From positions 314,961 through 378,960 of the forward strand of contig DATKWK010000017.1 in NCBI GenBank assembly GCA_035529595.1: a DNA stretch of 64,000 nt. The letters are read 5' to 3'. Below the pieces are notes generated by a model. It saw only the letters and a list, made by a program, of their open reading frames with translations, was not told the origin of the DNA and ran no database searches. This stretch comes from Candidatus Bathyarchaeia archaeon. Its GTDB lineage: Bacteria > Patescibacteriota > Microgenomatia > PFEM01 > JAFGMK01. The position numbers and the translations under genes are program-made. This document shows positions 39,931 to 54,058 of the stretch, in pieces (within the stretch, counting starts at the first letter, position 1; every line of letters starts with the position of its first letter).

Positions 39931-41250
39931 ATGGAAAAGAAACGTGTGGTTATCATTGGCGCTGCCGGTCGTGACTTTCATAATTTCAACACCGTTTATC
40001 GGGATAATAATGATTTTGAAGTCGTTGCTTTTACTGCCGCCCAGATCCCGGATATCGCCGGGAGAAAATATCCGGCCAGTCTTGCCGGGTGCTTATATCC
40101 GAAAGGGATTCCTATTCTTGATGAGAATGATTTGGAGAAAGTTATTATGAAGTATAATGTTGACGAATGCGTTTTGTCATATAGTGATCTCTCTTATGAT
40201 AACGTCATGCATCTTGGTTCGCGGGTAATGGCTGCCGGAGCTAAGTTTTCCCTGCTTGGGCCGAAACAAACGATGCTTAAAAGCAGTAAACCGGTTGTTG
40301 CCGTCCTGGCGGTCCGGACCGGTTGCGGTAAAAGTCAGACTTCAAGAAGGGTGGTGGAAATCCTCAAGGAAGCCGGAAAGAAAGTAGTTTCCATCCGCCA
40401 TCCAATGCCTTATGGTGATTTGGAGAAACAAAAAGTCCAGCGGTACGCTGAGATTAAAGATCTGGAAAAATACGATTGTACGATTGAGGAGATGGAAGAA
40501 TATGAGCCGCATATTGCTATGCAGAGCGTTATTTATGCCGGTGTTGATTACGAAGCGATTTTGCGTTTGGCAGAGAGGGAGGCTGATGTAATCGTTTGGG
40601 ACGGTGGCAATAACGATATGTCTTTTTACCGGCCTGATTTAACGATTGTTGTCGCTGATCCGCTTCGTGCCGGCCACGAGATGGCTTATTATCCGGGAGA
40701 AGTTAATTTTCGGTTAGCAGACGTGATCATTATCAATAAAATTGATGCGGCCAGTCCTGGTGACGTCAAAATTGTAGAAGATAACGCCAGAAAAGTTAAT
40801 CCGAAAGCTGAAATTATTAAGGCAGAATCAGTGCTGACAGTGGGAAAACCTGATCTGATTAAAGGGAAAAGAGTATTGGTAATCGAAGACGGCCCGACTT
40901 TGACTCATGGCGAAATGAAACTCGGTGCCGGTATAGTTGCCAGCCAAAGAAATGGCGCCAGGGAACTAGTCGACCCGCGTAAGTTCGCTGTTGGAAAGAT
41001 CAAAATGACTTACGAGCATTATCCGAATATCGGTACTCTTCTGCCGGCAATGGGTTATGGGCAGGAACAAATAAGAGATCTTGAGGAAACCATCAACCGG
41101 GTTGATTGCGATGCTGTGGTTATTGGCACACCAATCAATTTGGGCCGGTTTATTAAGATTAATAAACCGTTTACCAGGGTCAGTTACGAATTATCAGAGA
41201 AAGCTAAAATAGAATTGAAAAACTATATGGAGGAGAAAAAGTTAATCTAG
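39931..41250 (+). CDS. P-loop protein of the cyclic 2,3-diphosphoglycerate synthetase / DUF1611-like family (tentative)
   Basis: N-terminal Rossmann-like VVIIGAAGRDFH and central P-loop VRTGCGKSQT. The 439-aa length matches cDPGS-like proteins. Family assignment from memory. Confidence 0.4.
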   Translation: MEKKRVVIIGAAGRDFHNFNTVYRDNNDFEVVAFTAAQIPDIAGRKYPASLAGCLYPKGIPILDENDLEKVIMKYNVDECVLSYSDLSYDNVMHLGSRVMAAGAKFSLLGPKQTMLKSSKPVVAVLAVRTGCGKSQTSRRVVEILKEAGKKVVSIRHPMPYGDLEKQKVQRYAEIKDLEKYDCTIEEMEEYEPHIAMQSVIYAGVDYEAILRLAEREADVIVWDGGNNDMSFYRPDLTIVVADPLRAGHEMAYYPGEVNFRLADVIIINKIDAASPGDVKIVEDNARKVNPKAEIIKAESVLTVGKPDLIKGKRVLVIEDGPTLTHGEMKLGAGIVASQRNGARELVDPRKFAVGKIKMTYEHYPNIGTLLPAMGYGQEQIRDLEETINRVDCDAVVIGTPINLGRFIKINKPFTRVSYELSEKAKIELKNYMEEKKLI

Positions 41251-42202: not shown

Positions 42203-43327
42203 ATGAATATTAAGGGTAAACACTATCGAACAATTTGGCTGAAAGACGATAAAACTGTCCAAATAATCGATCAACGGTTTCTTCCTCATCAATTTATCAT
42301 CGAAGAATTGAAGGACGTCGATGAAGTTGCCCGGGCAATAAAGGAAATGCATGTCAGGGGAGCCGGGTTGATCGGGGCAACCGCCGGTTTTGGAGTTTAT
42401 CTCGCCGCCATAACTGCACCGAGGAAAGATTTTGACCGGTTTCTTCAGCTTGCCTCAAAAAGATTGATTGCTACCCGGCCGACAGCGGCCAATCTTAGAT
42501 GGGCGGTTGACAGGCAGCTTAGAAATATAGCTCTTGGTAAGACGGTTCAAGAAAAGATAATAATTGCCAAAAAAAACGCTACTGAAATTGCTGACGAAGA
42601 TGCGATGTTTTGCCGGAGGATCGGTGATTACGGCTTGAAAATTATCAAAAAAATAAGCAAGAAGAAGAAAGGACCGGTTAATATCCTGACTCACTGCAAC
42701 GCCGGCTGGTTGGCATTTGTTGATTACGGTTCGGCAACAGCGCCAATTTATCGGGCTTTTGATAGCGGGATTAAGGTGCATGTTTGGGTAGACGAGACCC
42801 GGCCCAGAAACCAAGGATCCAGATTAACCGCTTGGGAACTTCAGAAACACGGTGTACCCTATACCGTGATTGCCGATAATGTCGGTGGTCATTTAATGCA
42901 GCACGGACGGGTCGATCTGGTTATTGTCGGAACTGACAGGACAACCTATACCGGGGATGTTGCCAACAAAATCGGAACCTATCTTAAGGCTTTAGCAGCC
43001 AAAGACAACCGGATTCCTTTTTATGTAGCTCTTCCGTCGTCAACTTTTGATTGGAAAATAAAAGACGGAGTTAAGGATATTCCGATTGAGGAGAGAGGTT
43101 CAGAAGAGGTTAAATATATTCAAGGCTTATGTGAGGGGTCTATTAAAGAGGTTCTTTTGACCCCCAAAGAAAGTCATACGGCGAATTACGCTTTCGATGT
43201 GACGCCGGCCCGTCTTATTACCGGTTTAATTACCGAAAGGGGAATTTGTAAACCCAACAAACAAAGTATCTTGAAACTATATCCTGAATTTAAAAAAGTA
43301 GTAAAAGAAGATCTGAAAAATGAATAA
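42203..43327 (+). CDS. mtnA: eIF-2B-related sugar-phosphate isomerase (methylthioribose-1-phosphate / ribose-1,5-bisphosphate isomerase family)
   Basis: VQIIDQRFLP...MHVRGAGLIGATAGFGVYLAA and C-terminal PFYVALP...FDVTPA match the MtnA/e2b2 family. Confidence 0.8.
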   Translation: MNIKGKHYRTIWLKDDKTVQIIDQRFLPHQFIIEELKDVDEVARAIKEMHVRGAGLIGATAGFGVYLAAITAPRKDFDRFLQLASKRLIATRPTAANLRWAVDRQLRNIALGKTVQEKIIIAKKNATEIADEDAMFCRRIGDYGLKIIKKISKKKKGPVNILTHCNAGWLAFVDYGSATAPIYRAFDSGIKVHVWVDETRPRNQGSRLTAWELQKHGVPYTVIADNVGGHLMQHGRVDLVIVGTDRTTYTGDVANKIGTYLKALAAKDNRIPFYVALPSSTFDWKIKDGVKDIPIEERGSEEVKYIQGLCEGSIKEVLLTPKESHTANYAFDVTPARLITGLITERGICKPNKQSILKLYPEFKKVVKEDLKNE

Positions 43328-44309
43328 GGTCTATTTCTTAAAAGGTTTTAGTCGATTAGAATCAGTATCCAAAAAACTACTAGCAGGCTTTTATCGTCCG
43401 AAATCAAAGATATTGGTCAAACTGCACTTTGGCGAGCCGGGCAATCAGACCGCTTTTTTCCCCAAGGATATTAAGCCGATTGTAAATGCTTTAAAATCTC
43501 TCAAGCTTAAACCGATATTGATTGATACCCCGGTGGTCTATAATTCACTCCGAAATACGGTTGAAGGTTATACTAACGTACTCAGACAAAGAGGTTTTGA
43601 CAAGCTGGCGCCATTTGTTATTTCTGATCAGTTTATTAAGGTTAAAACCAAAGATTTTACCGCCGAAGTTTGCCGGGAGTTGGTTGAGGCAAATGGAGTT
43701 TTAGTTGTTTCCCACGTCAAGGGACATGGTTGTTCCGGATTTGGTGGTGCCATTAAAAACCTGGGTATGGGCGGTGTCAGTAAAAAAACCAAGGGAATAG
43801 AGCATGACTTAAGTAAGCCTAAGTTTGTTTCCGCATGCCGGGGTTGCGGAACTTGTGCCTCAGTTTGTCCGGCTGGGGCAATCAAGATGTTAAACGATAA
43901 AGCGGAGATTGATCTTAAGCGATGTTATGGTTGTTCCCTATGTGGAATAGTTTGTCCCTATAAATGTTTAGCACCCAAAAAAAGGAGTTTCGATGATCTA
44001 TTAGCTCAGGGAGCAGCGGCGGTAATCAATCATTTACCCCCAAAAACCTTTTATGTTAACGTGATTAAAAATGTTACCAAAGATTGTGATTGTGCCACTG
44101 ATTCAGGTAAAATTGTCGCTGGCGATTTAGGTGTTTTATTTTCCGAAAACCCGGTCGCCATCGATAAAGCCAGCATTGACTTACTGCGCCAAGCCAATAA
44201 ACGAGAAGTTTTCGAAGAAATCACCCACAAAAATCCTCTTTTGCACGTCAACTATACTGCTGGTTATATTGGTAATAACTTAAGTTATTCGCTGCTTTTA
44301 GTCTCCTAA
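43320..44309 (+). CDS. DUF362 domain protein with 2x[4Fe-4S] ferredoxin insert
   Basis: CRGCGTCASVCP and CYGCSLCGIVCP cluster motifs. Overlaps the upstream stop. Confidence 0.65.
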   Translation: MNKVYFLKGFSRLESVSKKLLAGFYRPKSKILVKLHFGEPGNQTAFFPKDIKPIVNALKSLKLKPILIDTPVVYNSLRNTVEGYTNVLRQRGFDKLAPFVISDQFIKVKTKDFTAEVCRELVEANGVLVVSHVKGHGCSGFGGAIKNLGMGGVSKKTKGIEHDLSKPKFVSACRGCGTCASVCPAGAIKMLNDKAEIDLKRCYGCSLCGIVCPYKCLAPKKRSFDDLLAQGAAAVINHLPPKTFYVNVIKNVTKDCDCATDSGKIVAGDLGVLFSENPVAIDKASIDLLRQANKREVFEEITHKNPLLHVNYTAGYIGNNLSYSLLLVS

Positions 44310-45088
44310 TGCTTATTTGTTAAACGGGCTGTGATAAAAATAAGTCCCTCATAGCCTTGATCGTATTCATTAGGAACACTACAAATTTTTATGTCACGAT
44401 AACCCAATTTGGAAAGACAGTTCTTCATGTATACCTCGTTAACTGGAAAACCGGCAAAAAAGGCGTTGCCTGACCGCCAGAAAGTGGCGTTTTTGCAGAC
44501 AAATTGGAGCAGCCAGCCTCCGGGTTTAAGTAAAAAAGTAATACTGCTCATATAGCTCTTAAATTCCTGGTCCCGGGAAGCGACAGCCTCGGTTACACCG
44601 CCGATGTAGACAACATCAAATGGTGGGTAGACTTGCGGGAAAAGCGGATTTTTTAGGCGGATGTCGCAAAAATTCAGTTTTAGGATGGAATTTATAACGC
44701 GCAGTTTCAGATGTTTGCGATTTATCCGGGTTTGACTTTTTCCCTCTAGTTTAAGAACGTAATTCAAAAATTTATCCCAATCGTAGGCAACGGGCTGATT
44801 TTCTAGCCATTTTTTCACCTCTACCAGATTTCTGTCAAGAAAATCAGTAAAAACGATTTTATTACCATAGTTGCTGGCGCTCAGAAGATGATAGATAGTT
44901 GGTCCGCCGCCGATTTCTAAAACTCTTTTTGGGCCGCCAATTTTTTTATACGCTTTGTGGATAAATTCAAGCAGAGCCTGATTTTCCGACCCGATCTCGG
45001 CATAGTACTCTTTTAAATACTCGTGCACTGAGAAGTATTTTCGGAAATTGCGTGTTTTTGTTTTCATTGTTGACAGATTGTAAACCAT
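44306..45088 (-). CDS. NNMT/PNMT/TEMT-family (PF01234-like) small-molecule N-methyltransferase
   Basis: FSVHEYLKEYY, IGGGPTIYHLLSA, FTDFLDRNLVEVKKWLENQPVAYDW, and LKPGGWL parallel the human NNMT blocks ([55 protein letters not shown]), recalled from memory. Confidence 0.75.
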   Translation of the reverse strand: MVYNLSTMKTKTRNFRKYFSVHEYLKEYYAEIGSENQALLEFIHKAYKKIGGPKRVLEIGGGPTIYHLLSASNYGNKIVFTDFLDRNLVEVKKWLENQPVAYDWDKFLNYVLKLEGKSQTRINRKHLKLRVINSILKLNFCDIRLKNPLFPQVYPPFDVVYIGGVTEAVASRDQEFKSYMSSITFLLKPGGWLLQFVCKNATFWRSGNAFFAGFPVNEVYMKNCLSKLGYRDIKICSVPNEYDQGYEGLIFITARLTNKH

Positions 45089-45094
45089 AATGTT

Positions 45095-45925
45095 ATGATA
45101 GTCACGTTGATGTCCGATAAATCAGACAACCTGATTAGCCTGATTATGCCTCTTGGTATTAATCAAGATGAGGCGAGAGTTTACTTGTATTTGCTTGAAA
45201 AAGGGACAAAAACAGCCCTCCAGTTAAGTCGCGACCTCCATATTGCCAGGACAAGAGTGTATCGGATATTGGACAAGTTGATTGAAAAGGGCTTAGTCAG
45301 TCAAAAACTTGAAGATACGGGAAAAAGATTTTTAGCTAATTCATACCATCAACTGAATTTATTATTAAAACAGCGAGAGCATGAAGTCCAGGCTCTTAGG
45401 GAATCTATACCAGTAATATTTAAGGAGCTTGAGAAGTTAGCCGCTTCTGGTAAAGAACCGTCTCACGTTCTCTATTACAGTGGCGTTAAAGGATTAAAAC
45501 AGGTAACCTGGAATTCTCTGAAAGCTAAAGACGAGCTTTTAATTTACGAAATTGCTGATATGGCAGCCTTTTTGAATTATGGCTTTTGCGAAAAAGTCCG
45601 TGAAGAATATGTAAGAAGAAAAATCTATATTCGAGAACTTACTAATTTAAGCCACCTGCCTGCCTGGACTAAGATAAAGGACTTGGTAAAAAATTATTGG
45701 CAAGTGCGGTATATTGACTCGAGAGAACTCCCGATAAAGTTTGAGGTTCTGGTTTATAACGATGTCTATGCTATGTATAATTATCAGGAAGATGATATAT
45801 TCTGTATTGAAGTTTATAACCGAGATTTAGCTGATATGCAAAAACGGCTTTTTAATTTTGCCTGGAAACGTGCCCTTAAAATAAAGATTTTAAATAATGA
45901 AGGAGAAGCACAGTTAACTAATTAA
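45095..45925 (+). CDS. TrmB-family transcriptional regulator
   Basis: N-terminal wHTH PLGINQDEARVYLYLLEKGTKTALQLSRDLHIARTRVYRILDKLIEKGLV and a ~170-aa C-terminal effector domain. Divergent from the NNMT-like gene, with starts 6-40 bp apart. Confidence 0.7.
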   Translation: MIVTLMSDKSDNLISLIMPLGINQDEARVYLYLLEKGTKTALQLSRDLHIARTRVYRILDKLIEKGLVSQKLEDTGKRFLANSYHQLNLLLKQREHEVQALRESIPVIFKELEKLAASGKEPSHVLYYSGVKGLKQVTWNSLKAKDELLIYEIADMAAFLNYGFCEKVREEYVRRKIYIRELTNLSHLPAWTKIKDLVKNYWQVRYIDSRELPIKFEVLVYNDVYAMYNYQEDDIFCIEVYNRDLADMQKRLFNFAWKRALKIKILNNEGEAQLTN

Positions 45926-46063
45926 CTGCTGATCCATAATTCGTTCGGATCGGAAATTTGATGTCCTTCCTCAAAACTCTTCCCAGCTTTTATAAACTTG
46001 CATTCATTACACAATTGTGTAATAATAAGAAAATTCAAAAGTAACCCAGTCTGAAGATATAAA

Positions 46064-46480
46064 ATGTTAAGACCAAATTCGTTATACCCGGAACTAGTTG
46101 TAGGAGCACTTATTTTTAATCCTAAAGGCCAGATATTATTAATGAAGTCCAGGAAATGGAGAAACCAATACGTGATACCGGGTGGTCACCTTGATCTGGG
46201 AGAGAAAGTTGAACAGGCTCTGAAAAGAGAAATTAAAGAAGAAACCAGTTTAAATATTTACAGTTTGAAATTTCTCAATTTTCGAGAGGCGGTTTTTGAT
46301 AAGCATGGTTGGAATAATAGACATTTAATTTTTTTTAACTATATTGCTAAGACTGGTTCTCTGGATGTAAAACTCAATTCTGAAGCCCAAGAATATTGTT
46401 GGGTAAGTTTAGATGAGGCACTGAGGTTACCATTATTGACTTATACCAGAAAAACAATCGAAGATTATAAATCTAGTTAG
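46064..46480 (+). CDS. NUDIX hydrolase
   Basis: Nudix box GHLDLGEKVEQALKREIKEETSL. Confidence 0.7.
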   Translation: MLRPNSLYPELVVGALIFNPKGQILLMKSRKWRNQYVIPGGHLDLGEKVEQALKREIKEETSLNIYSLKFLNFREAVFDKHGWNNRHLIFFNYIAKTGSLDVKLNSEAQEYCWVSLDEALRLPLLTYTRKTIEDYKSS

Positions 46481-46495
46481 ATTATTATTAAAGCT

Positions 46496-48679
46496 ATGAT
46501 TCGTAATCAAGTATTACTGACACCGGAACTGGTTTCCGAAATAAAAAAAATTGCCAGAAAACAGGGGCTTTCACAATCAGAGGTTATTAGGAAGCTCCTC
46601 GGTCGGGCCTTGGCTTTCGATGAAGGTGGTAATTTTAAAAAGGCGGCGACTCTAAGTGCTACCGGTATTTATGATTTATCTACTTTTGATTTTAAGAATC
46701 CGCGAATTGATGGTTTTAAGGAAATATTTTCTGTTGGTGGAAAAACTCCGGAGATTAAAATTGTTGGCGATGAAGTTTTTAGACACTACTTCAAATTCAA
46801 AAAATTTCCGTCAGGATTTGAATACCAGGTAGTGAAATTAAGCACTGATCTTAAGAAATTCTCGCTTAATAAAAAATTAGTTGTTCGGCGAGCCTACGTC
46901 GTTCCCGGCCTTGCAAATCCACCCGGGCCGAGGTTTTTAGGTTTAGATACGCATAAAGTGACTAAGGCAATAAAGAAAATTTTTGGTTTTGCTATTGAGC
47001 ACGAATATCATCTGGCGGAGAATTCTCAAATTTGTGCCTTTTTTTATCCCTTTGATGATCCGAGGCCAGTAGCCTCGTTACTAGAGTCGGATTTAATCCT
47101 ACCTTATGGCGGATATGCGGCTCCCTTGAACCGGCTAGCCTCGCGGGTTGAAGTTTTTGCAGTTTGGGGTAACAACGAAGGCGTTCAATCGTTCGACACA
47201 ATTGATAGGTATATTGTTGATGCTGAAAGAGACATTATCTCCGAAAAAGAAATTCCCCAAAAAACATTGATGTTTTGTACTACCAAAAAGTCTCAATCAG
47301 AAAAAATTGCCGTTCCTCAAAATAGGCAATTCGAACAAGTTTTAAGTGATAGCGAGATTCTCGAAGTAGGCAGAGTAGTTAAAGAATTGACCGCTAAATA
47401 CGGTTTGCGGCGAGTGGAATTTTCTTTCGACGGAAAAGAAACGATTACTTTTAATGAGTCCGTTCCTTATGAAATTGCTCCTCAAAAATTAGAAAGCATT
47501 GACCGACGCGGATTTATTAAAATTATCTCCTCAGAAAAAGATATTGAGGTATTAAGGAAACTCAAACTCAAACAGGTTGCCAAAGTTATTGTTTATATTG
47601 ATAAGGCTATTGTTGAAAATCGTGCTTATGATATTTTAAACAGTGTTGCCGGCTTGCCTAATAAATTTACAGTTTTATACCCCGGTCTTTCCGCTACCGC
47701 CCATGCGATGAGGATTCTTAATGATTTTGGCCATACGGCAATCGTCGTTGGCAACCGGATTTTTAAAGAAGGCGAAGAGGTGATTATCAGAGCTAAGGAT
47801 ACACAGATTGAGATTAAGGTGATTTCAAGAAAAAGCCTTAAGAATCTGATGGTTCATCTTTATGACGCAAAATTATACGGTAAAGAGCTGGTGGGCGGTA
47901 AGGCCACTAACCTTTCACTGCTTAAATCCAAGGGATTTAATGTGCCTCATGGTTGGGTTTTGACAACCTCTTTTTTCGATCAAATCGTTTCCCGGTCAAT
48001 TGACAGTCATAGCTTACGGCAATTAGAGCAAGGTCAACTTTATCACAGTAGCTTTGTTAAAAAACTTTCAGAATTCAATTTTGATATTCCTCAGGCGTGG
48101 TGGATTAAGTTCAAAAAGGCCGGTCAATTTTCTCCTAAAAAAAAGTATGCCGTTCGTTCCTCAGCTACGGTTGAAGATCAGCTAGAACACTCTTTTGCCG
48201 GTCAGTTTAAAACTTTTTTGAATGTCGGGGGGAACCGAATAACAACAAATGTTTCAGCGGTCATAAAAAGTACTTTTAGCGATCGAGTCGCCCAATATCT
48301 TTCCGCCCTGAAAAGATCCTGGTCGATAAAGATGGCGGTAATTATCCAGGAGATGGTCGAAGCGGAAAAGTCAGGCGTCATTTTTGGTAAAGACATTCAG
48401 ACCGGCAATGAAGACTTATTAATAATTGACACCGCTCCCGGCTTGGGTGAAGGAGTGGTTGAAGGAACTGCGAAAACGCAAAGAATTATCTATTCACGAA
48501 GTAAAGATGCTATTCTTGACCAAAATCAATCTCCAAAATTTCTCTCACGAATAGAAATTGACTCTCTGGTTGAAATGGCTTTAAGCGTCGAAAGAATGAT
48601 GGGTGAAACTCAAGATATTGAATGGGCGATTGATAAAAAGAACAATATTTGGTTAATCCAAACTAGAAGCCTGCGATAG
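46496..48679 (+). CDS. PEP-utilising-enzyme-like phosphotransferase with permuted domain order
   Basis: C-terminal ~290 aa match the PPDK_N ATP-binding domain (GGKATNLSLL, VRSSATVEDQLEHSFAGQFKTFLNV, MAVIIQEMVEAEKSGVIFG). The preceding segment GLSATAHAMRILNDFGHTAIVVGNR...GEEVIIRA resembles the phospho-His swivel domain. N-terminus is RHH-like. No TIM-barrel PEP/pyruvate domain. Confidence 0.55.
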   Translation: MIRNQVLLTPELVSEIKKIARKQGLSQSEVIRKLLGRALAFDEGGNFKKAATLSATGIYDLSTFDFKNPRIDGFKEIFSVGGKTPEIKIVGDEVFRHYFKFKKFPSGFEYQVVKLSTDLKKFSLNKKLVVRRAYVVPGLANPPGPRFLGLDTHKVTKAIKKIFGFAIEHEYHLAENSQICAFFYPFDDPRPVASLLESDLILPYGGYAAPLNRLASRVEVFAVWGNNEGVQSFDTIDRYIVDAERDIISEKEIPQKTLMFCTTKKSQSEKIAVPQNRQFEQVLSDSEILEVGRVVKELTAKYGLRRVEFSFDGKETITFNESVPYEIAPQKLESIDRRGFIKIISSEKDIEVLRKLKLKQVAKVIVYIDKAIVENRAYDILNSVAGLPNKFTVLYPGLSATAHAMRILNDFGHTAIVVGNRIFKEGEEVIIRAKDTQIEIKVISRKSLKNLMVHLYDAKLYGKELVGGKATNLSLLKSKGFNVPHGWVLTTSFFDQIVSRSIDSHSLRQLEQGQLYHSSFVKKLSEFNFDIPQAWWIKFKKAGQFSPKKKYAVRSSATVEDQLEHSFAGQFKTFLNVGGNRITTNVSAVIKSTFSDRVAQYLSALKRSWSIKMAVIIQEMVEAEKSGVIFGKDIQTGNEDLLIIDTAPGLGEGVVEGTAKTQRIIYSRSKDAILDQNQSPKFLSRIEIDSLVEMALSVERMMGETQDIEWAIDKKNNIWLIQTRSLR

Positions 48680-49011: not shown

Positions 49012-49299
49012 ATGGAAAACAAGAAAACGGAAAGCAAAAAACAAGCTTCACTTCTGAATTTTAAAAAAGCCCGAAGCCATATCGGTAAGATTATCAAGAT
49101 GATTGAAAAAGACGCTTACTGTGTTGATATTATGCAGCAAAATTTGGCGGTTATCGGTTTATTGAGATCCGCTCATCAGAAACTGATGGAAAATCATTTA
49201 AATACCTGCTTTATCAAAGCCCTGGATTCAAGAAATACGCAAAAAAAGGAAAAAATGGTTCAGGAGATATTAAAAGTAGCCAGCTTATTTAACCGGTAA
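49012..49299 (+). CDS. csoR: CsoR/RcnR-family metal-sensing transcriptional repressor
   Basis: ARSHIGKIIKMIEKDAYCVDIMQQ...AHQKLMENHLNTC carries the C-H-C metal ligands in DUF156 spacing. Confidence 0.7.
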   Translation: MENKKTESKKQASLLNFKKARSHIGKIIKMIEKDAYCVDIMQQNLAVIGLLRSAHQKLMENHLNTCFIKALDSRNTQKKEKMVQEILKVASLFNR

Positions 49300-49305
49300 A
49301 TAATA

Positions 49306-50691
49306 GTGAAACCTAAAAAACCATTATCTTTAAAAGAGCAAACCTTTTTGGTTAAGAATCTGCATTGTTCTTCTTGTGAGTTGTTAATAGAAAAAAGACT
49401 CCTAAACCAAGAAAATGTGATTCGCGTTAAAGCTTCAGTAAAAGACGGCTTAGTAAAGATTAACTACCAAGGTAACGGACTTAAAATTCAAGATTTAAAT
49501 CGGCTTTTCAAAAACGAGAATTATCTTTTCTCGTATCCATCAATTGGCAGCCAAGTTAGTAAGCCTCCGAGACTGAAAGATGCTTTATCGGCGATAATGA
49601 CCGCTCTTTTGATTATCATCGGTTTTGTGCTGATTAATCAATCAGGTTTGTTGGCTTCAGTGGAAATTAAAAAGACCTCATCTTTACCGGTTTTTTTTCT
49701 TTTTGGGCTTCTGGCCGGAGTTTCAAGTTGCGCTGCTTTGGTTGGTGGTCTTGTCTTATCCATGAGCAGGCAATGGTCTTGGGCTTATTCAGGAAAGGAG
49801 TCAGTTTTAACTCGACTCGAACCTCACCTGCTTTTTAACTCCGGGCGATTAGTTTCATATGGATTATTGGGGGCACTTCTGGGCAGTATCGGGAGCATCT
49901 TTAAGCCTTCACCTTTTTTTTCCTCGATTTTAGTCATTGGAACCAGTCTGTTAATGATTATATTAGCTCTCCAGATGTTGGGGATAAGAACCTTTCGACG
50001 AATTCAGATCGCTTTACCCCGGTCCGTCACCGGCTTTATCACTAACGAGGGGAATTTTAAAGCCCGTTATCTACCCTTTGTAATGGGTGCTTTAACTTTT
50101 TTTCTACCCTGTGGTTTTACCCTGACCGCACAGGGCTTAGCAACTATAAGCGGCAGCCCGATGCAAGGGGGATTGATTATGTTTCTGTTTGCCTTGGGTA
50201 CCTTGCCTTCACTTCTGCTAATAAGCCTTTCCGGTATTGCTTTTGTACAAAAACCTTCCCGGTCTGGTCTCTATCTTAAGATAGCCGGAGTGGTGGTCCT
50301 TTTTTTTGCTTTCTTTAATCTGAATTCTCAGTTGAATACGTTAGGCTTACCTTCCCTGAGTGATTTTAGGACAAAAAAGAGTAATGCTTCGCAATCAATA
50401 GAGCAGAACATACAGGTCATTGAAATGGCAGCGTCTGCTTATGGTTATGATCCCAGTTATTTTAAAGTTAAAGTTGGTATTCCCGTGAGATGGGAGATTA
50501 CTGACAAAGGAACCAGTGGTTGTACCAGTGCGGTGATCGCCAAAAACCTGTTTGACGGGCAGATAAATCTGATTCATGGCCAGACTAGCGTTAAAGAGTT
50601 TATCCCCGAAAAACCGGGACGTTATAAGTTCAATTGCTGGATGGGAATGGTATCCGGAATAATTGAAATTGAAGGGTGGGAGCTGGAATGA
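49306..50691 (+). CDS. HMA-domain / polytopic permease / cupredoxin-like fusion protein (copper homeostasis, putative)
   Basis: N-terminal HMA CxxC (LHCSSCE), about 8 TM helices with SSCA motif (TauE/CcdA-like), and a C-terminal beta domain ending in GRYKFNCWMGMVSGIIEI. Confidence 0.45.
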   Translation: MKPKKPLSLKEQTFLVKNLHCSSCELLIEKRLLNQENVIRVKASVKDGLVKINYQGNGLKIQDLNRLFKNENYLFSYPSIGSQVSKPPRLKDALSAIMTALLIIIGFVLINQSGLLASVEIKKTSSLPVFFLFGLLAGVSSCAALVGGLVLSMSRQWSWAYSGKESVLTRLEPHLLFNSGRLVSYGLLGALLGSIGSIFKPSPFFSSILVIGTSLLMIILALQMLGIRTFRRIQIALPRSVTGFITNEGNFKARYLPFVMGALTFFLPCGFTLTAQGLATISGSPMQGGLIMFLFALGTLPSLLLISLSGIAFVQKPSRSGLYLKIAGVVVLFFAFFNLNSQLNTLGLPSLSDFRTKKSNASQSIEQNIQVIEMAASAYGYDPSYFKVKVGIPVRWEITDKGTSGCTSAVIAKNLFDGQINLIHGQTSVKEFIPEKPGRYKFNCWMGMVSGIIEIEGWELE

Positions 50692-51770
50692 AAAACAGAA
50701 AAAGGAAGATCGTTGTTGGCATGTCCGGAGGAGTCGATTCTTCGATGGCTCTAGTTTTGTTAAAACAGCAGGGTTGGCAGCCGGTAGGCGTTTCTCTAAA
50801 GTTGCCGGTCTGGCAGGAAGCGCCGGGTTTATCGGTTGAAAATATTTACAGCTCCAACCGGTCTTTGCAGATTGCTGCCAGGATTTGTCGAAACGTAAAC
50901 GTTCCCCATCACATAATCGATGTCCGGTCTGAGTTTAAAAAGACGGTCATTGGTTATTTTATTTCTGAACTTAAAAATAACAAAACTCCTAATCCCTGTG
51001 TCATTTGTAATCGCCATTTGAAGTTTAAGAAACTGCTTGAATTTGCTGAAAAAGAGAAAGCAGACTTTATTGCTACTGGCCATTACGCTCGGATAAGAAA
51101 AAACCAGCAAACCGGTAAATATGAACTGCTGAAGGCAAAAGATAAAACTAAGGACCAAACATATGCTCTCTGCTTTTTACCTCAGGAATGGTTGGGTAAA
51201 ATTGTTTTCCCCCTCGGAAATTATGCTAAAAAAGAGGTTTATCAGATAGCTAAATCCTCGGGGTTTGAATTTTTCCTGAAACGAAAACAAAGTCAGGATT
51301 TTTGTTTCGCGACCGGGTTGTCTTTGTTGTCTTTCTTGAAAAAAGAAATCGGAGAAAAAAGCGGTGACATAATAGATAATGAAGGAAATGTTTTAGGTCA
51401 ACATTCGGGTTTGCATTTTTATACCATCGGACAAAGGAGACGATTAGGTCTTTCGGGTGGTCCTTACTTTGTCAAAGGTATTGATTCGGAAAAGAATATC
51501 TTGATTGTGACTAAAAACGAAAAAGAGGTAACGCAACGAGAACTTAAACTTTACCCATTTCATTTTATCAGCGGACGTTCGCTTCCAAAAAAGCAACCTG
51601 TAATGGCAAAAGTTCGCTACCGCCAAGTATTGAGTAAGGCGCTTCTCTATCCGCCTGAAAAGAACAAACTGCGTTTGGTCTTTGGCCGACCACAAAGAGC
51701 AGTTACTTCTGGTCAGTTTGCCGTCTTTTATCAGAGTGAAGTTTGCCTGGGAGGAGGAGTGATTTTATGA
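50688..51770 (+). CDS. mnmA: tRNA-specific 2-thiouridylase
   Basis: PP-loop [12 protein letters not shown] and the [10 protein letters not shown] Cys region. ATG overlaps the upstream TGA, and its own stop overlaps the copA ATG. Confidence 0.85.
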
Positions 51771-54058
51771 AGAAGAAAATAGATTTGGACATTTCCGGTA
51801 TGCATTGCAGCGGTTGTGTCGTTAGTATTGAGACTCTTCTGAAGAAACAAGAGGGTATCTATTCAGCCAGCGTCAATTTTGCTTCCGAAAGGGCAATAAT
51901 CGAGTTTGATCCGCGAAGAATCACTCTAAAAAGGATCAAAGAAATGGTTAAGAAGATAGGTTACGAAGCCGAAGAATCGGGAGAAGATCATCAAGAAGCG
52001 GAAAGTAAAAAAATCAAGAAATTAAGAGATACTTTTCTTGGTTCATTACTCCTTGGTTTACCTCTTTTTTACCTAAGCATGGGAGATATGCTTAGCCTGC
52101 CAAGGCTACCGATCTCTACCAGCACGAATACCCTGATTCAATTTTTGTTGACAGCAGGAATTATGATTCAAAACGTACGCCTTTATATATCCGGACTTAA
52201 GAAACTAAGGCAAAAGAATCCTGACATGGATTCTTTGGTGTCGATGGGAACATTAGCTGCCTTTGTTTACAGTTTAATTGCTTCAATCAGCGTCTTTTTC
52301 GGACCGGCAAAGATAAAGGAAACTCATCTTTATTTTGAAAGCGCTGGTTTTATCTTAATCTTTATTTCTTTGGGAAAATATTTGGAGGCTATTACCAAGG
52401 AGAAAACAAGTGAAGCGGTCAAAAAACTTATCGGACTAAGACCTAAAGAAGCAACAGTAATCAGGGGAGGTGAACAAATGAAAATTCCGATATCAGCAGT
52501 ATTAACCGGCGATTTGCTTCTGGTAAAACCCGGCGAGAAGATACCGGTTGACGGTGTTGTTGTCAGCGGTTATTCGGCAGTAGATGAGAAAGCCTTTACC
52601 GGTGAGAGTCTTCCGGTTGAGAAGAAAACCGGTGATGAAGTTATCGGCGCCACAATAAATATGACTGGCATCTTAAAAATCAAAGCCCGGCATATAGGTA
52701 AAAAAATGATGCTTTCTCAAATCATTAAGATAGTCGAAGAAGCGATCGGCTCTAAAGCGCCGATCCAGCTTTTGGCAGATAAAATTTCGTACTACTTCGT
52801 TCCGGTGGTAATGGTAATCGCTTTTTTGGCCTTTTTTTTCTGGTTAATCGTCGGTCAATCATTGGAGTTTGCTTTAACGGTGTTTATTGCGGTTTTGATT
52901 ATTGCCTGTCCTTGTTCTTTAGGATTGGCGATGCCAACAGCAATTATGATGGGCGCGGGATTAGCTGCCCAACGGGGGATTTTAATCAGGAAACCCCAGG
53001 CCTTGGAAATGGCGGAAAAGGTTAATTTGGTGGTGTTTGACAAAACCGGTACCCTAACTTTGGGCAAACCAACCGTCACTGATGTTCTGTCCGTGGCCAA
53101 ACTGAAACTTAAAAGTTCATCAATAAATTCGAAACTGTCTGAAGATCAACTTGATGTTTTGCAGGCCACTGCCTCACTGGAAAAAAACTCGCAGCACCCA
53201 TTGACTCACGCAATTTTAAAAAAAGCCAACCAAGAAAATTTGAAGTTATTTAAGGTTGAAAGTTTCACCACAATTCCCGGCCAAGGAATAACAGGAAACC
53301 TGGAGTCAAAAACTCCAGGTGTTAAACTCAAACTGCTTTTGGGAAATAGAAAATTAATGGCAGAAAATCAGGTCCTGATCAAACCAGCCGGAAATAGAGC
53401 AATCGGTCAATTAGAAAATCAAGGAAAGACAGTCATGATTTTAGCAGTAAATCGACGTCTGGCCGGATTAATCGCCGTGGCTGATATTGTGAAGGATCAG
53501 GCTCAGGAGACCCTGGATCTACTTAGAAGATTAGGTAAGAAAATAGTAATTATTACCGGTGATAACCGCCGTGTTGCTGATGTAATCGCACATAAGTTAG
53601 GAGTTGATCAAGTCTTATCAGAGGTTTTACCTCAAGAAAAGTCAAAAGAGATTAAGAAATTACAGCAACAAGGCCATACCGTAGCTATGGTCGGTGACGG
53701 TATCAATGATGCTCCGGCTTTAGCTCAGGCTGATTTGGGAATAGCCTTGGGGTCCGGTACCGACGTGGCTATCGAAACAGGTGATATTATCCTGGTGAAA
53801 GACGATTTACTTGATGTAGTTAAAGCTATTGATTTGAGCCGGTACACCTTAAAGAAAATTAAGCAGAATCTTTTTTGGGCTTTTTCCTACAATATTATTG
53901 GTATTCCGATCGCTGCCGGTATTTTGTATCCGACTACCGGTTGGCTCTTGGAGCCGATGATTGCGGCGGCAGCAATGGCTTTTTCTTCAGTCAGCGTTGT
54001 AGTCAATTCGTTACTGATGAAAAGGTATCGATTATCTAAGCCTGGTACACTTCCTTAA
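51767..54058 (+). CDS. copA: copper-translocating P1B-type ATPase
   Basis: HMA GMHCSGC, CPC motif, [20 protein letters not shown] ggaggagg before ATG 51767. Confidence 0.9.

Follow-up and report, generated by a model that had tools for sequence, protein, structure and literature searches.

A predicted histidine-swivel phosphotransferase with two ATP-grasp domains and a putative self-regulating RHH segment

The DNA analysed here (the window) is a 64,000-nt stretch of contig DATKWK010000017.1, assembly GCA_035529595.1. It carries a complete open reading frame (ORF) on the + strand, positions 46496-48679, for a 727-residue protein of the PEP synthase/PPDK superfamily, referred to below as the kinase. 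We read the protein as a histidine-swivel (dikinase-type) phosphotransferase built from a ribbon-helix-helix (RHH) segment, a divergent ATP-grasp (N domain), a phosphohistidine swivel domain (M domain) and a canonical C-terminal ATP-grasp (C domain). The C domain would charge the histidine, the N domain would accept the phosphoryl group and the RHH segment would repress the gene's own promoter; we put the probability of this reading at about 0.5. What is new here is a predicted form of the His-swivel dikinase theme that has two ATP-grasps and to which this clade adds a putative RHH autorepressor. An earlier interpretation made from the letters of the window (the sequence-only reading) had delimited the same ORF and proposed a candidate novel ATP-dependent phosphotransferase acting on a small molecule or protein; an ATP-dependent phosphotransferase remains the best reading of the predicted protein. 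Its outline of a His-carrier domain directly before a C-terminal ATP-binding domain, with the TIM barrel missing, agrees with our results. The N-terminal region of ~350 aa that it left unassigned proved to be mostly a second, divergent PPDK_N-type ATP-grasp.

Domain organisation and conservation

The coding region contains the following features.

46496-48679, + strand: kinase ORF, complete, 727 aa and a stop codon, in the order RHH, ATP-grasp', His domain, ATP-grasp
46496-46621, + strand: putative RHH DNA-binding domain (aa 1-42), from an RHH_1 match below cutoff and predicted helices
46667-47470, + strand: N domain (aa 58-325), divergent PPDK_N-type ATP-grasp (ATP-grasp') and proposed acceptor site, from profile, fold and relatives
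47498-47830, + strand: M domain (aa 335-445), cryptic phosphohistidine swivel (His) domain, from transitive hidden Markov model (HMM) evidence, hhalign and the order of elements in the AlphaFold2 (AF2) model
47702-47704, + strand: His403 codon (codon checked), proposed phospho-carrier in Thr401-Ala-His403, from its invariance
47837-48676, + strand: C domain (aa 448-727), PPDK_N ATP-grasp and proposed site of His403 (pyro)phosphorylation, from PF01326, Foldseek and conserved residues

The full-length AF2 model of the protein had a mean pLDDT of 84.5 and a pTM of 0.75, and the linkers flanking the M domain were short, at about 8-10 residues. Pfam gave no match to the PEP/pyruvate TIM barrel (PF02896) at E<=10, and the PPDK_N domain closes the chain: a second, canonical ATP-grasp stands where PEP synthase and PPDK have the barrel. 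Between the two ATP-grasp domains there was no Pfam match able to serve as a rifampin-binding (RIF-binding) domain, and none of the PADLOC defence models matched the protein.

The C domain was assigned to PPDK_N by the sequence-only reading, and PF01326 bore this out at E=8.2e-61 (206.5 bits against a cutoff of 27; best stretch aa 464-681). Among solved structures, the best sequence match was the ATP-binding domain of the Listeria rifampin phosphotransferase (RPH), 5hv6, at E=1e-22 over aa 447-725. Foldseek gave RPH 5hv1 at E=7.7e-19, with HpeI (9goj) also a top fold match. In an alignment of 36 family sequences (A1), which is the basis of all invariance counts given here, K469, R554, E709, Q722 and R724 never vary, and most members have Thr or Ser at position 574. 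K469, R554, T574 and E709 align with Lys22, Arg117, Thr136 and Glu297 of the Listeria enzyme (RPH-Lm), residues that have been probed by mutagenesis (PMC4844700). Because the C domain keeps these four counterparts, we take it as the site where His403 would attack ATP. NCBIfam models for PEP synthase, PigC/RedH and RPH covered only aa ~450-725, and their scores led us to reject orthology with PEP synthase, PPDK or RPH: all lay far below the equivalog cutoffs, with PEP synthase models at 167.9 bits or less where 598-1063 is required (167.9 against 883) and RPH models 129 bits against 999 (NF041857) and 76 against 1700 (NF000283). The sequence-only reading had noted a resemblance to rifampicin phosphotransferase-type enzymes; the protein is not an RPH orthologue of standard order.

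The M domain contains GLSATAHAMRILNDFGHTAIVVGN at aa 397-420, described in the sequence-only reading as a mobile-domain signature. That signature is not directly detectable, since PF00391 gave no match at E<=10 in the protein or in any of the 36 family members; the assignment itself is upheld indirectly, by residue conservation, by the order of secondary structure, by a weak in-register profile alignment and by transitive links to PF00391-positive relatives. His403, the histidine of the TAH motif, is present in 36 of 36 aligned members, and Thr401 is conserved in at least 90% of them. Among wider relatives covering position 403, all but one have His there, and Thr401 is nearly universal. His413 is also invariant in the 36-sequence alignment but is not similarly kept in the wider relatives. 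In the most divergent members the sequence here is VTSHMLRNFADLGITVVFIG, which comes near to SHGAVVAREYGIPAVVG in RPH-like swivel domains.

The swivel fold has a beta-alpha-beta-alpha-beta-alpha-beta-beta-beta layout, with its His at the start of a short helix. The same order of elements was seen in the AF2 model of M, where a short helix has His403 at its N terminus. Alignment of M with RPH-type swivel domains by hhalign was marginal (E=0.024 to 0.0087), and 2 of 60 column-shuffled controls scored as high as the real alignment; at E=0.0087 it spanned 87 colinear columns and placed His403 on the catalytic His. Stronger links came from relatives. Among 1.84 billion cluster representatives, an N+M profile picked out 488 proteins at E<=1e-3, 52 of them at E<=1e-30, including two-domain proteins of ~370 aa in which Pfam itself identifies PPDK_N (61-64 bits) followed by PF00391. 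In one of these, P0194, PF00391 scored 28.6 bits at residues 299-363, above the cutoff of 23.1; its scores in P0184 and P0200 were 22.1 and 21.0 bits, respectively. An M-only HMM built from three-domain proteins only matched the same PF00391 regions at E=3.9e-5 in P0194 and E=6.2e-7 in P0184 (E-values scaled to a notional 177,635-sequence database). This transitive HMM evidence is decisive: judged by its profile relationships, M is a true, very divergent phosphohistidine swivel domain.

The N domain repeats the PPDK_N ATP-grasp in degenerate form. A profile of aa 55-447 (N+M; alignment A2) matched the second half of the ATP-binding domain in both PEP synthase (8a8e, E=2.2e-11) and RPH (E=2.7e-7), and the single sequence gave sub-threshold NCBIfam matches to PigC and PEP synthase at the same place in N. 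Pfam PPDK_N scored above cutoff on the N domain of relatives (30.6-64 bits) and did not recognise the N domain in the 727-residue protein itself. The AF2 model of the aa 55-447 fragment (pLDDT 86.6) most resembled the RPH ATP-binding domain 5hv3 (Foldseek E=5.5e-13), HpeI (9goj, E=1e-10) and PPDK; generic ATP-grasp enzymes ranked next. When N was aligned with C by hhalign, the two were colinear over 232 columns (E=2.7e-4), with Arg131 paired to Arg554, Glu308 to Glu709, Asn320 to Gln722 and Ser322 to Arg724.

The N and C domains are similarly conserved: columns at least 90% identical make up 16.9% of the N domain and 16.4% of the C domain. Conserved N-domain residues include R70, R131, R132, N141, K251, K256, E308, N320 and E321. 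Of the ATP ligands, N keeps a basic residue, Arg70, at the Lys22 position of RPH-Lm, together with Arg131 (Arg117) and Glu308 (Glu297); others are lost. A Pro-rich rigid loop, PGLENPPGPRFLG, occupies the place of 'EDxxxxSFAGQ' in C, and Ser322 that of Arg724. The N domain of the two-domain relatives is more canonical, with its PPDK_N score of 61-64 bits and 'SR' kept, and is their sole ATP-grasp, which suggests that fusion of the C domain freed N for an acceptor role. The N+M model superposed on 1dik, 1ggo and 2dik over 575-588 columns with TMq of 0.49-0.55 (575 columns and 0.55 for PPDK 1dik), compared with a TMq of 0.37 for 2x0s. We take these three structures to represent the PPDK conformer in which the His domain is docked on the nucleotide domain; the fit would then be consistent with docking of the modelled M domain in the N cleft.

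The N+M profile also matched the N-lobe of the EGFR kinase domain over aa ~84-180 (window ~46745-47035; 9p9u_A, E=2.3e-5), with about 50 other EGFR entries at E 0.06-0.16. The match is centred on 'NPPGPRFLG' and is probably a chance local resemblance.

The family and its relation to known dikinases

A search of 5.8 billion proteins returned about 95 near-full-length relatives at 32-68% identity, all with PF01326 as their sole precomputed domain. Those with a named source come from metagenome-assembled genomes (MAGs) of Dojkabacteria, Woesebacteria, Parcubacteria or the 'Patescibacteria group'. After the family, the next matches were ordinary RPH-like and PEP synthase proteins aligned over the C domain only. 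In a scan of one genome per GTDB species, 13 loci matched beyond the C domain: the phylum-named ones are Patescibacteria-type, and five bear automated labels such as 'uncultured Gammaproteobacteria' or 'Woesearchaeota'. In ORFs from other lineages the PPDK_N match starts within the first ~70 residues in 31 of 34 and is C-terminal in none of the 34. Besides His403, His413 and the C-domain residues named above, many residues of the N half are invariant in A1. On these sequence comparisons the family is real and conserved and, by the sampled genomes, confined to Patescibacteria/candidate phyla radiation (CPR). In the literature we found no account of this architecture in CPR and no biochemistry of the family.

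Family members are about 640-730 aa long, and N-M-C proteins as long as 926 aa exist. The modules also occur in other arrangements. P0145 (L091 3935-5899, GCA_053535835.1) is circularly permuted, with the order C-N-M in one uninterrupted ORF: a canonical PPDK_N domain at aa 22-239 is followed by an N-like ATP-grasp and a His domain at aa 294-644. P0194 is a genuine stand-alone N-M gene. Two further candidates were rejected as evidence of split genes. P0121 ('N+M only', 389 aa; L086 568-2597) overlaps a 298-aa PPDK_N gene that follows it and has a C terminus off the consensus; most likely it is a full-length family gene broken by a frameshift or by mis-assembly. For P0125 (376-aa N+M), two independent contigs (L087, L088) both stop 68 nt past its stop codon and are uninformative on this point. 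Upstream of P0125, L087 encodes an NT5C-type nucleotidase, a 236-aa AA_kinase-family protein and an 827-aa RPH-like protein with PPDK_N and PEP-utilizers domains.

The closest precedent for the order of the last two domains is glucan water dikinase (GWD). Potato GWD1 consists of two CBM45 modules, an all-alpha central domain, a His domain and an ATP-binding domain, and its His domain is only distantly like those of RPH and PPDK (PMC13553574). Like GWD1 and phosphoglucan water dikinase, the kinase has an acceptor-side domain, a His domain and a C-terminal PPDK_N-type domain, has no TIM barrel and has a short link between the His domain and the domain before it. Pfam found no carbohydrate-binding module (CBM) in the kinase, however, and the domain preceding its His domain is an alpha/beta ATP-grasp, in contrast to the two CBM45 modules and the all-alpha central domain; the GWD proteins of plants and algae are also about 1400 aa long, against about 640-730 aa in Patescibacteria. 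A strict GWD homologue was rejected for want of the CBM and of the all-alpha central domain. These comparisons qualify the permuted domain order described in the sequence-only reading. Relative to the C domain the His domain does sit upstream, but such an order is not unprecedented, since GWD1 has it (PMC13553574), and because N is itself a copy of the ATP-grasp, the catalytic part of the chain opens in the canonical order of ATP-grasp and His domain.

The RPH group (RPH-Lm, 5hv1/5fbs; PigC; RedH) gave the best sequence and structure matches for both ATP-grasps. In RPH a swivelling phospho-His travels between the ATP site and a separate acceptor site (PMC4844700), and the permuted relative P0145 has the RPH-like order of ATP-grasp, middle domain and His domain. 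RPH itself differs from the kinase in running from ATP-grasp through RIF-binding domain to a C-terminal His domain, with an acceptor domain unrelated to ATP-grasp; RPH-like proteins also carry PF00391 and PF27448, neither of which was detected in the 727-residue protein. PEP synthase and PPDK share the succession of ATP-grasp and His domain, and the Thr-x-His of the kinase corresponds to their canonical Thr-Ser-His. They differ in that the TIM barrel (PF02896) is swapped here for a second ATP-grasp, that the first ATP-grasp is degenerate here, and that long helical linkers there compare with about 10 residues here.

Two experimentally studied systems provide precedents for modules of the family. 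VadK (Rv1127c) of M. tuberculosis is a truncated PPDK derivative with proven ATP/Mg-dependent His autophosphorylation (PMC13400623). With an ATP-binding domain, a phospho-His domain and no TIM barrel, it is by domain description the closest analogue of the P0194-type N+M relatives; unlike the kinase, it has one ATP-grasp and no RHH, whereas a second, canonical ATP-grasp is present here. In HpeHI the ATP-grasp module is split from a swivel-plus-acceptor module (PMC12167813). Such phenylphosphate-synthase-type dikinases resemble the family in having separable modules, as in the N-M-C, C-N-M and N-M arrangements, but their acceptor module is RIF-binding-domain-like, whereas that of the kinase is ATP-grasp-like and all modules are fused in one chain.

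The RHH segment, its candidate operator and the NUDIX gene

Upstream of the kinase the following features bear on its expression.

45998-46026, + strand: putative promoter of the NUDIX-kinase operon, read from the sequence (-35 TTGCAT at 45998-46003, 16-nt spacer, -10 TAATAAT at 46020-46026)
46006-46023, no strand assigned: perfect 18-bp palindrome ATTACACAATTGTGTAAT, putative RHH operator, between the TrmB-family and NUDIX genes, overlapping the spacer and the -10 box
46064-46480, + strand: NUDIX hydrolase gene, 138 aa, nucleotide-pyrophosphatase-type (PF00293, E=3.1e-22)

The RHH-like start noted in the sequence-only reading is supported by an RHH_1 match below threshold (aa 8-35; 19.7 bits, cutoff 20.5), by RHH_1 matches in 8 of the 36 aligned members (best E=4.9e-5) and by two AF2 helices at aa 10-23 and 27-39 (pLDDT 86-88). 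The segment is confined to the Dojkabacteria-like subclade P0001-P0038 and is missing in P0040-P0095.

The palindrome is the sole inverted repeat in the intergenic region between the TrmB-family and NUDIX genes and occurs once in the window; a match was obtained in 3 of 100 shuffles. The conserved palindrome, TACACAATTGTGTAATAAT, fills the promoter spacer, overlaps the -10 box and co-occurs with the RHH domain. The motif TACACA(A/C)TTGTGTAATAAT precedes the start codon at 11 distinct RHH-bearing loci, the window counted, and was absent from all 88 other loci examined, RHH-less family members among them. At the six other RHH-bearing loci fetched by protein (L001/L002, L006, L092-L095) it invariably lies 11-73 nt from the start. 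A TTGNNN hexamer was found 16 nt 5' of TAATAAT in every family upstream sequence inspected. A generic promoter scan did not list the promoter at 45998-46026 because TTGCAT shares just 3 of 6 positions with TTGACA. When metagenome contigs were scanned for exact matches to the 19-nt operator, 16 sites came up. Five are directly 5' of RHH-bearing family genes, and two of these five are on contigs included in the count above. The remaining 11 share no downstream gene, and their number is about that expected by chance, as estimated from the size of the collection. One non-family copy, on L096 (Ga0123353_10166499), lies 6 nt 5' of a 73-aa ORF with the look, by eye, of an XRE-type helix-turn-helix protein.

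Because the palindrome fills the spacer and overlaps the -10 box, its position has the classic geometry of autorepression, and by this arrangement the RHH domain appears to shut off its own gene's promoter. In the RHH-bearing subclade the RHH domain would bind the palindrome and the enzyme would repress its own transcription; in the window the same repression would reach the NUDIX gene, which lies between promoter and kinase. Enzymes with a fused N-terminal RHH autorepressor are known, PutA being an example. PutA-type enzymes likewise carry an N-terminal RHH on a metabolic enzyme and a palindromic operator overlapping their own promoter, but their catalytic domains are unrelated and DNA binding is a prediction for the kinase.

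The NUDIX stop codon is separated from the kinase ATG by 15 nt. Co-transcription of the two genes is probable, as the promoter and operator precede the NUDIX gene and the gap is so short. The sequence-only reading had looked to a NUDIX association across relatives, which was not borne out: NUDIX genes occurred within 6 kb at 4 of 17 family loci, and next to the kinase only in the window. The NUDIX-kinase operon thus seems, from these comparisons, to be peculiar to this genome. Neighbourhood comparison, over three loci and then over ORF clusters of the 17 loci, found nothing conserved beyond this weak NUDIX recurrence.

Proposed mechanism, alternatives and genomic context

We infer that the C domain is the charging site. 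It would bind MgATP, and an attack of His403 on the beta-phosphate would release AMP and leave (pyro)phospho-His403, which is how PEP synthase, RPH and glucan water dikinase proceed. The M domain, on its two short linkers, would then swing to the N-domain cleft, where the retained basic and acidic residues of the phosphate/Mg site would hold an anionic acceptor that receives the phosphoryl group. Our leading guess is that this acceptor is nucleotide-like or a phosphorylated small molecule. Several points weigh against such a scheme. The linkers, at ~10 residues, are far shorter than those of PPDK, so that a large swivel is not assured. The M HMM matched canonical PEP synthase/RPH swivel domains at only E=0.21 when all relatives were included, and the HMM from three-domain members alone gave zero match to them. 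N is the sole ATP-grasp of the two-domain relatives and so could still bind ATP in the kinase. The unconserved gene neighbourhood gives no substrate clue from context, and the one argument for DNA binding by the putative RHH domain is its co-occurrence with the palindrome.

Among the alternatives we considered a regulatory autokinase, in which the phospho-His403 state would steer partner proteins or the protein's own RHH DNA binding while N served as a nucleotide-sensing or docking scaffold. We regard it as unlikely. VadK, with its ATP-binding and His domains, autophosphorylates on His422 and works via protein partners (PMC13400623), and stand-alone N+M genes without an acceptor domain exist (P0194); a fused DNA-binding domain with a conserved operator would suit a sensor-regulator, as would the lack of a conserved metabolic neighbourhood among the 17 loci. 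The RHH, however, is missing in well over half of the listed members, so regulation through it would not be the core function. N is as conserved as C, with many invariant charged residues, more like an active site than a scaffold, and simple autophosphorylation needs no second full ATP-grasp. A scheme with nucleotides bound to both ATP-grasps, between which His403 would shuttle a (pyro)phosphoryl group, for example in ATP + NMP -> AMP + NTP (nucleoside mono- and triphosphate) or in an alarmone-like transfer, seems to us less probable again. N, as the ancestral ATP site, may itself charge the His in such a scheme: it is homologous to PPDK_N with R70, R131 and E308 at the Lys22, Arg117 and Glu297 positions, it is the only possible ATP site in the two-domain relatives, and the N+M model fits best the structures 1dik, 1ggo and 2dik, presumably the docked conformer. 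PPDK-type sites make pyrophospho-His (PMC4844700), and a nucleotide-pyrophosphatase-type NUDIX gene shares the putative operon here. Yet N has no counterpart of Arg724 and no 'ED...SFAGQ' loop, Pfam is silent on N in this protein, the NUDIX linkage is seen in this genome only, and no biochemical precedent is known.

A more specific version, in which the swivelling His moves a (pyro)phosphoryl group from C-bound ATP to an N-bound nucleotide in an RHH self-regulated, NUDIX-paired enzyme, is speculative and ranks lower still; such an enzyme could, for example, convert NMP to NTP in one step or synthesise an alarmone-like nucleotide. A functional PEP synthase or PPDK converting pyruvate to PEP, or a rifampin-phosphotransferase-type kinase, mis-split by the domain models, is very improbable. 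The top NCBIfam and PDB sequence matches do bear the names PEP synthase, RPH or PigC, but every one covers nothing beyond the ATP-grasp domain, at the low scores against PEP synthase and RPH cutoffs given above; PF02896 and a RIF-binding candidate between the ATP-grasps were both missing from the Pfam results, and the region where a substrate domain would be expected has an ATP-grasp fold.

Directly 3' of the kinase, 49012-54058 is a likely copper-resistance cluster. It comprises genes for a CsoR-type metal-sensing repressor (49012-49299) and a membrane protein with HMA, DsbD_2 and cupredoxin domains (49306-50691), both Pfam-scanned, an ORF (50676-51770) whose product looks by eye like the tRNA thiolase MnmA, and an ORF (51743-54058) that combines P-type-ATPase-like motifs with a CxxC metal-binding motif at the N terminus. 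Upstream, 42203-45925 holds genes for a protein of the MtnA/ribose-1,5-bisphosphate-isomerase family (PRK05720, 456 bits), for a DUF362 + 4Fe-4S protein, on the minus strand for an NNMT/PNMT-type methyltransferase, and for a TrmB-family regulator. P0145, too, has a TrmB-family gene two genes 5' of it on L091, possibly by coincidence. The 439-aa product of 39931-41250 was assigned to no Pfam or NCBIfam family; all it shows is a weak match to a CobW/HypB-type GTPase over residues 232-296. Rfam and tRNA scans over the whole window found nothing. An identical copy of the kinase protein, P0001, is labelled 'Candidatus Bathyarchaeia archaeon' at NCBI. The window holds bacterial-looking genes, including those for a three-domain MetK, an MnmA-like protein, TGT, a HisKA/HATPase_c protein, MacB/FtsX and HlyD; given these and the close homologues in Patescibacteria, the MAG is probably misclassified or mis-binned.

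His-swivel dikinases are a textbook case of modular enzyme evolution. To our knowledge, the known ones (PPDK, PEP synthase, RPH, GWD, HpeHI and VadK) combine one ATP-grasp and one His domain with differing acceptor modules. The family described here would add an acceptor module that is itself a remodelled ATP-grasp copy, natural permutations of the modules (N-M-C, C-N-M and N-M alone) and a fused transcriptional autorepressor with a candidate operator. The metabolism of Patescibacteria/CPR is reduced and poorly understood, and an ATP-consuming enzyme kept across the sampled MAGs of Dojkabacteria, Woesebacteria and Gottesmanbacteria probably points to a metabolic or regulatory step in these organisms that has gone unrecognised.

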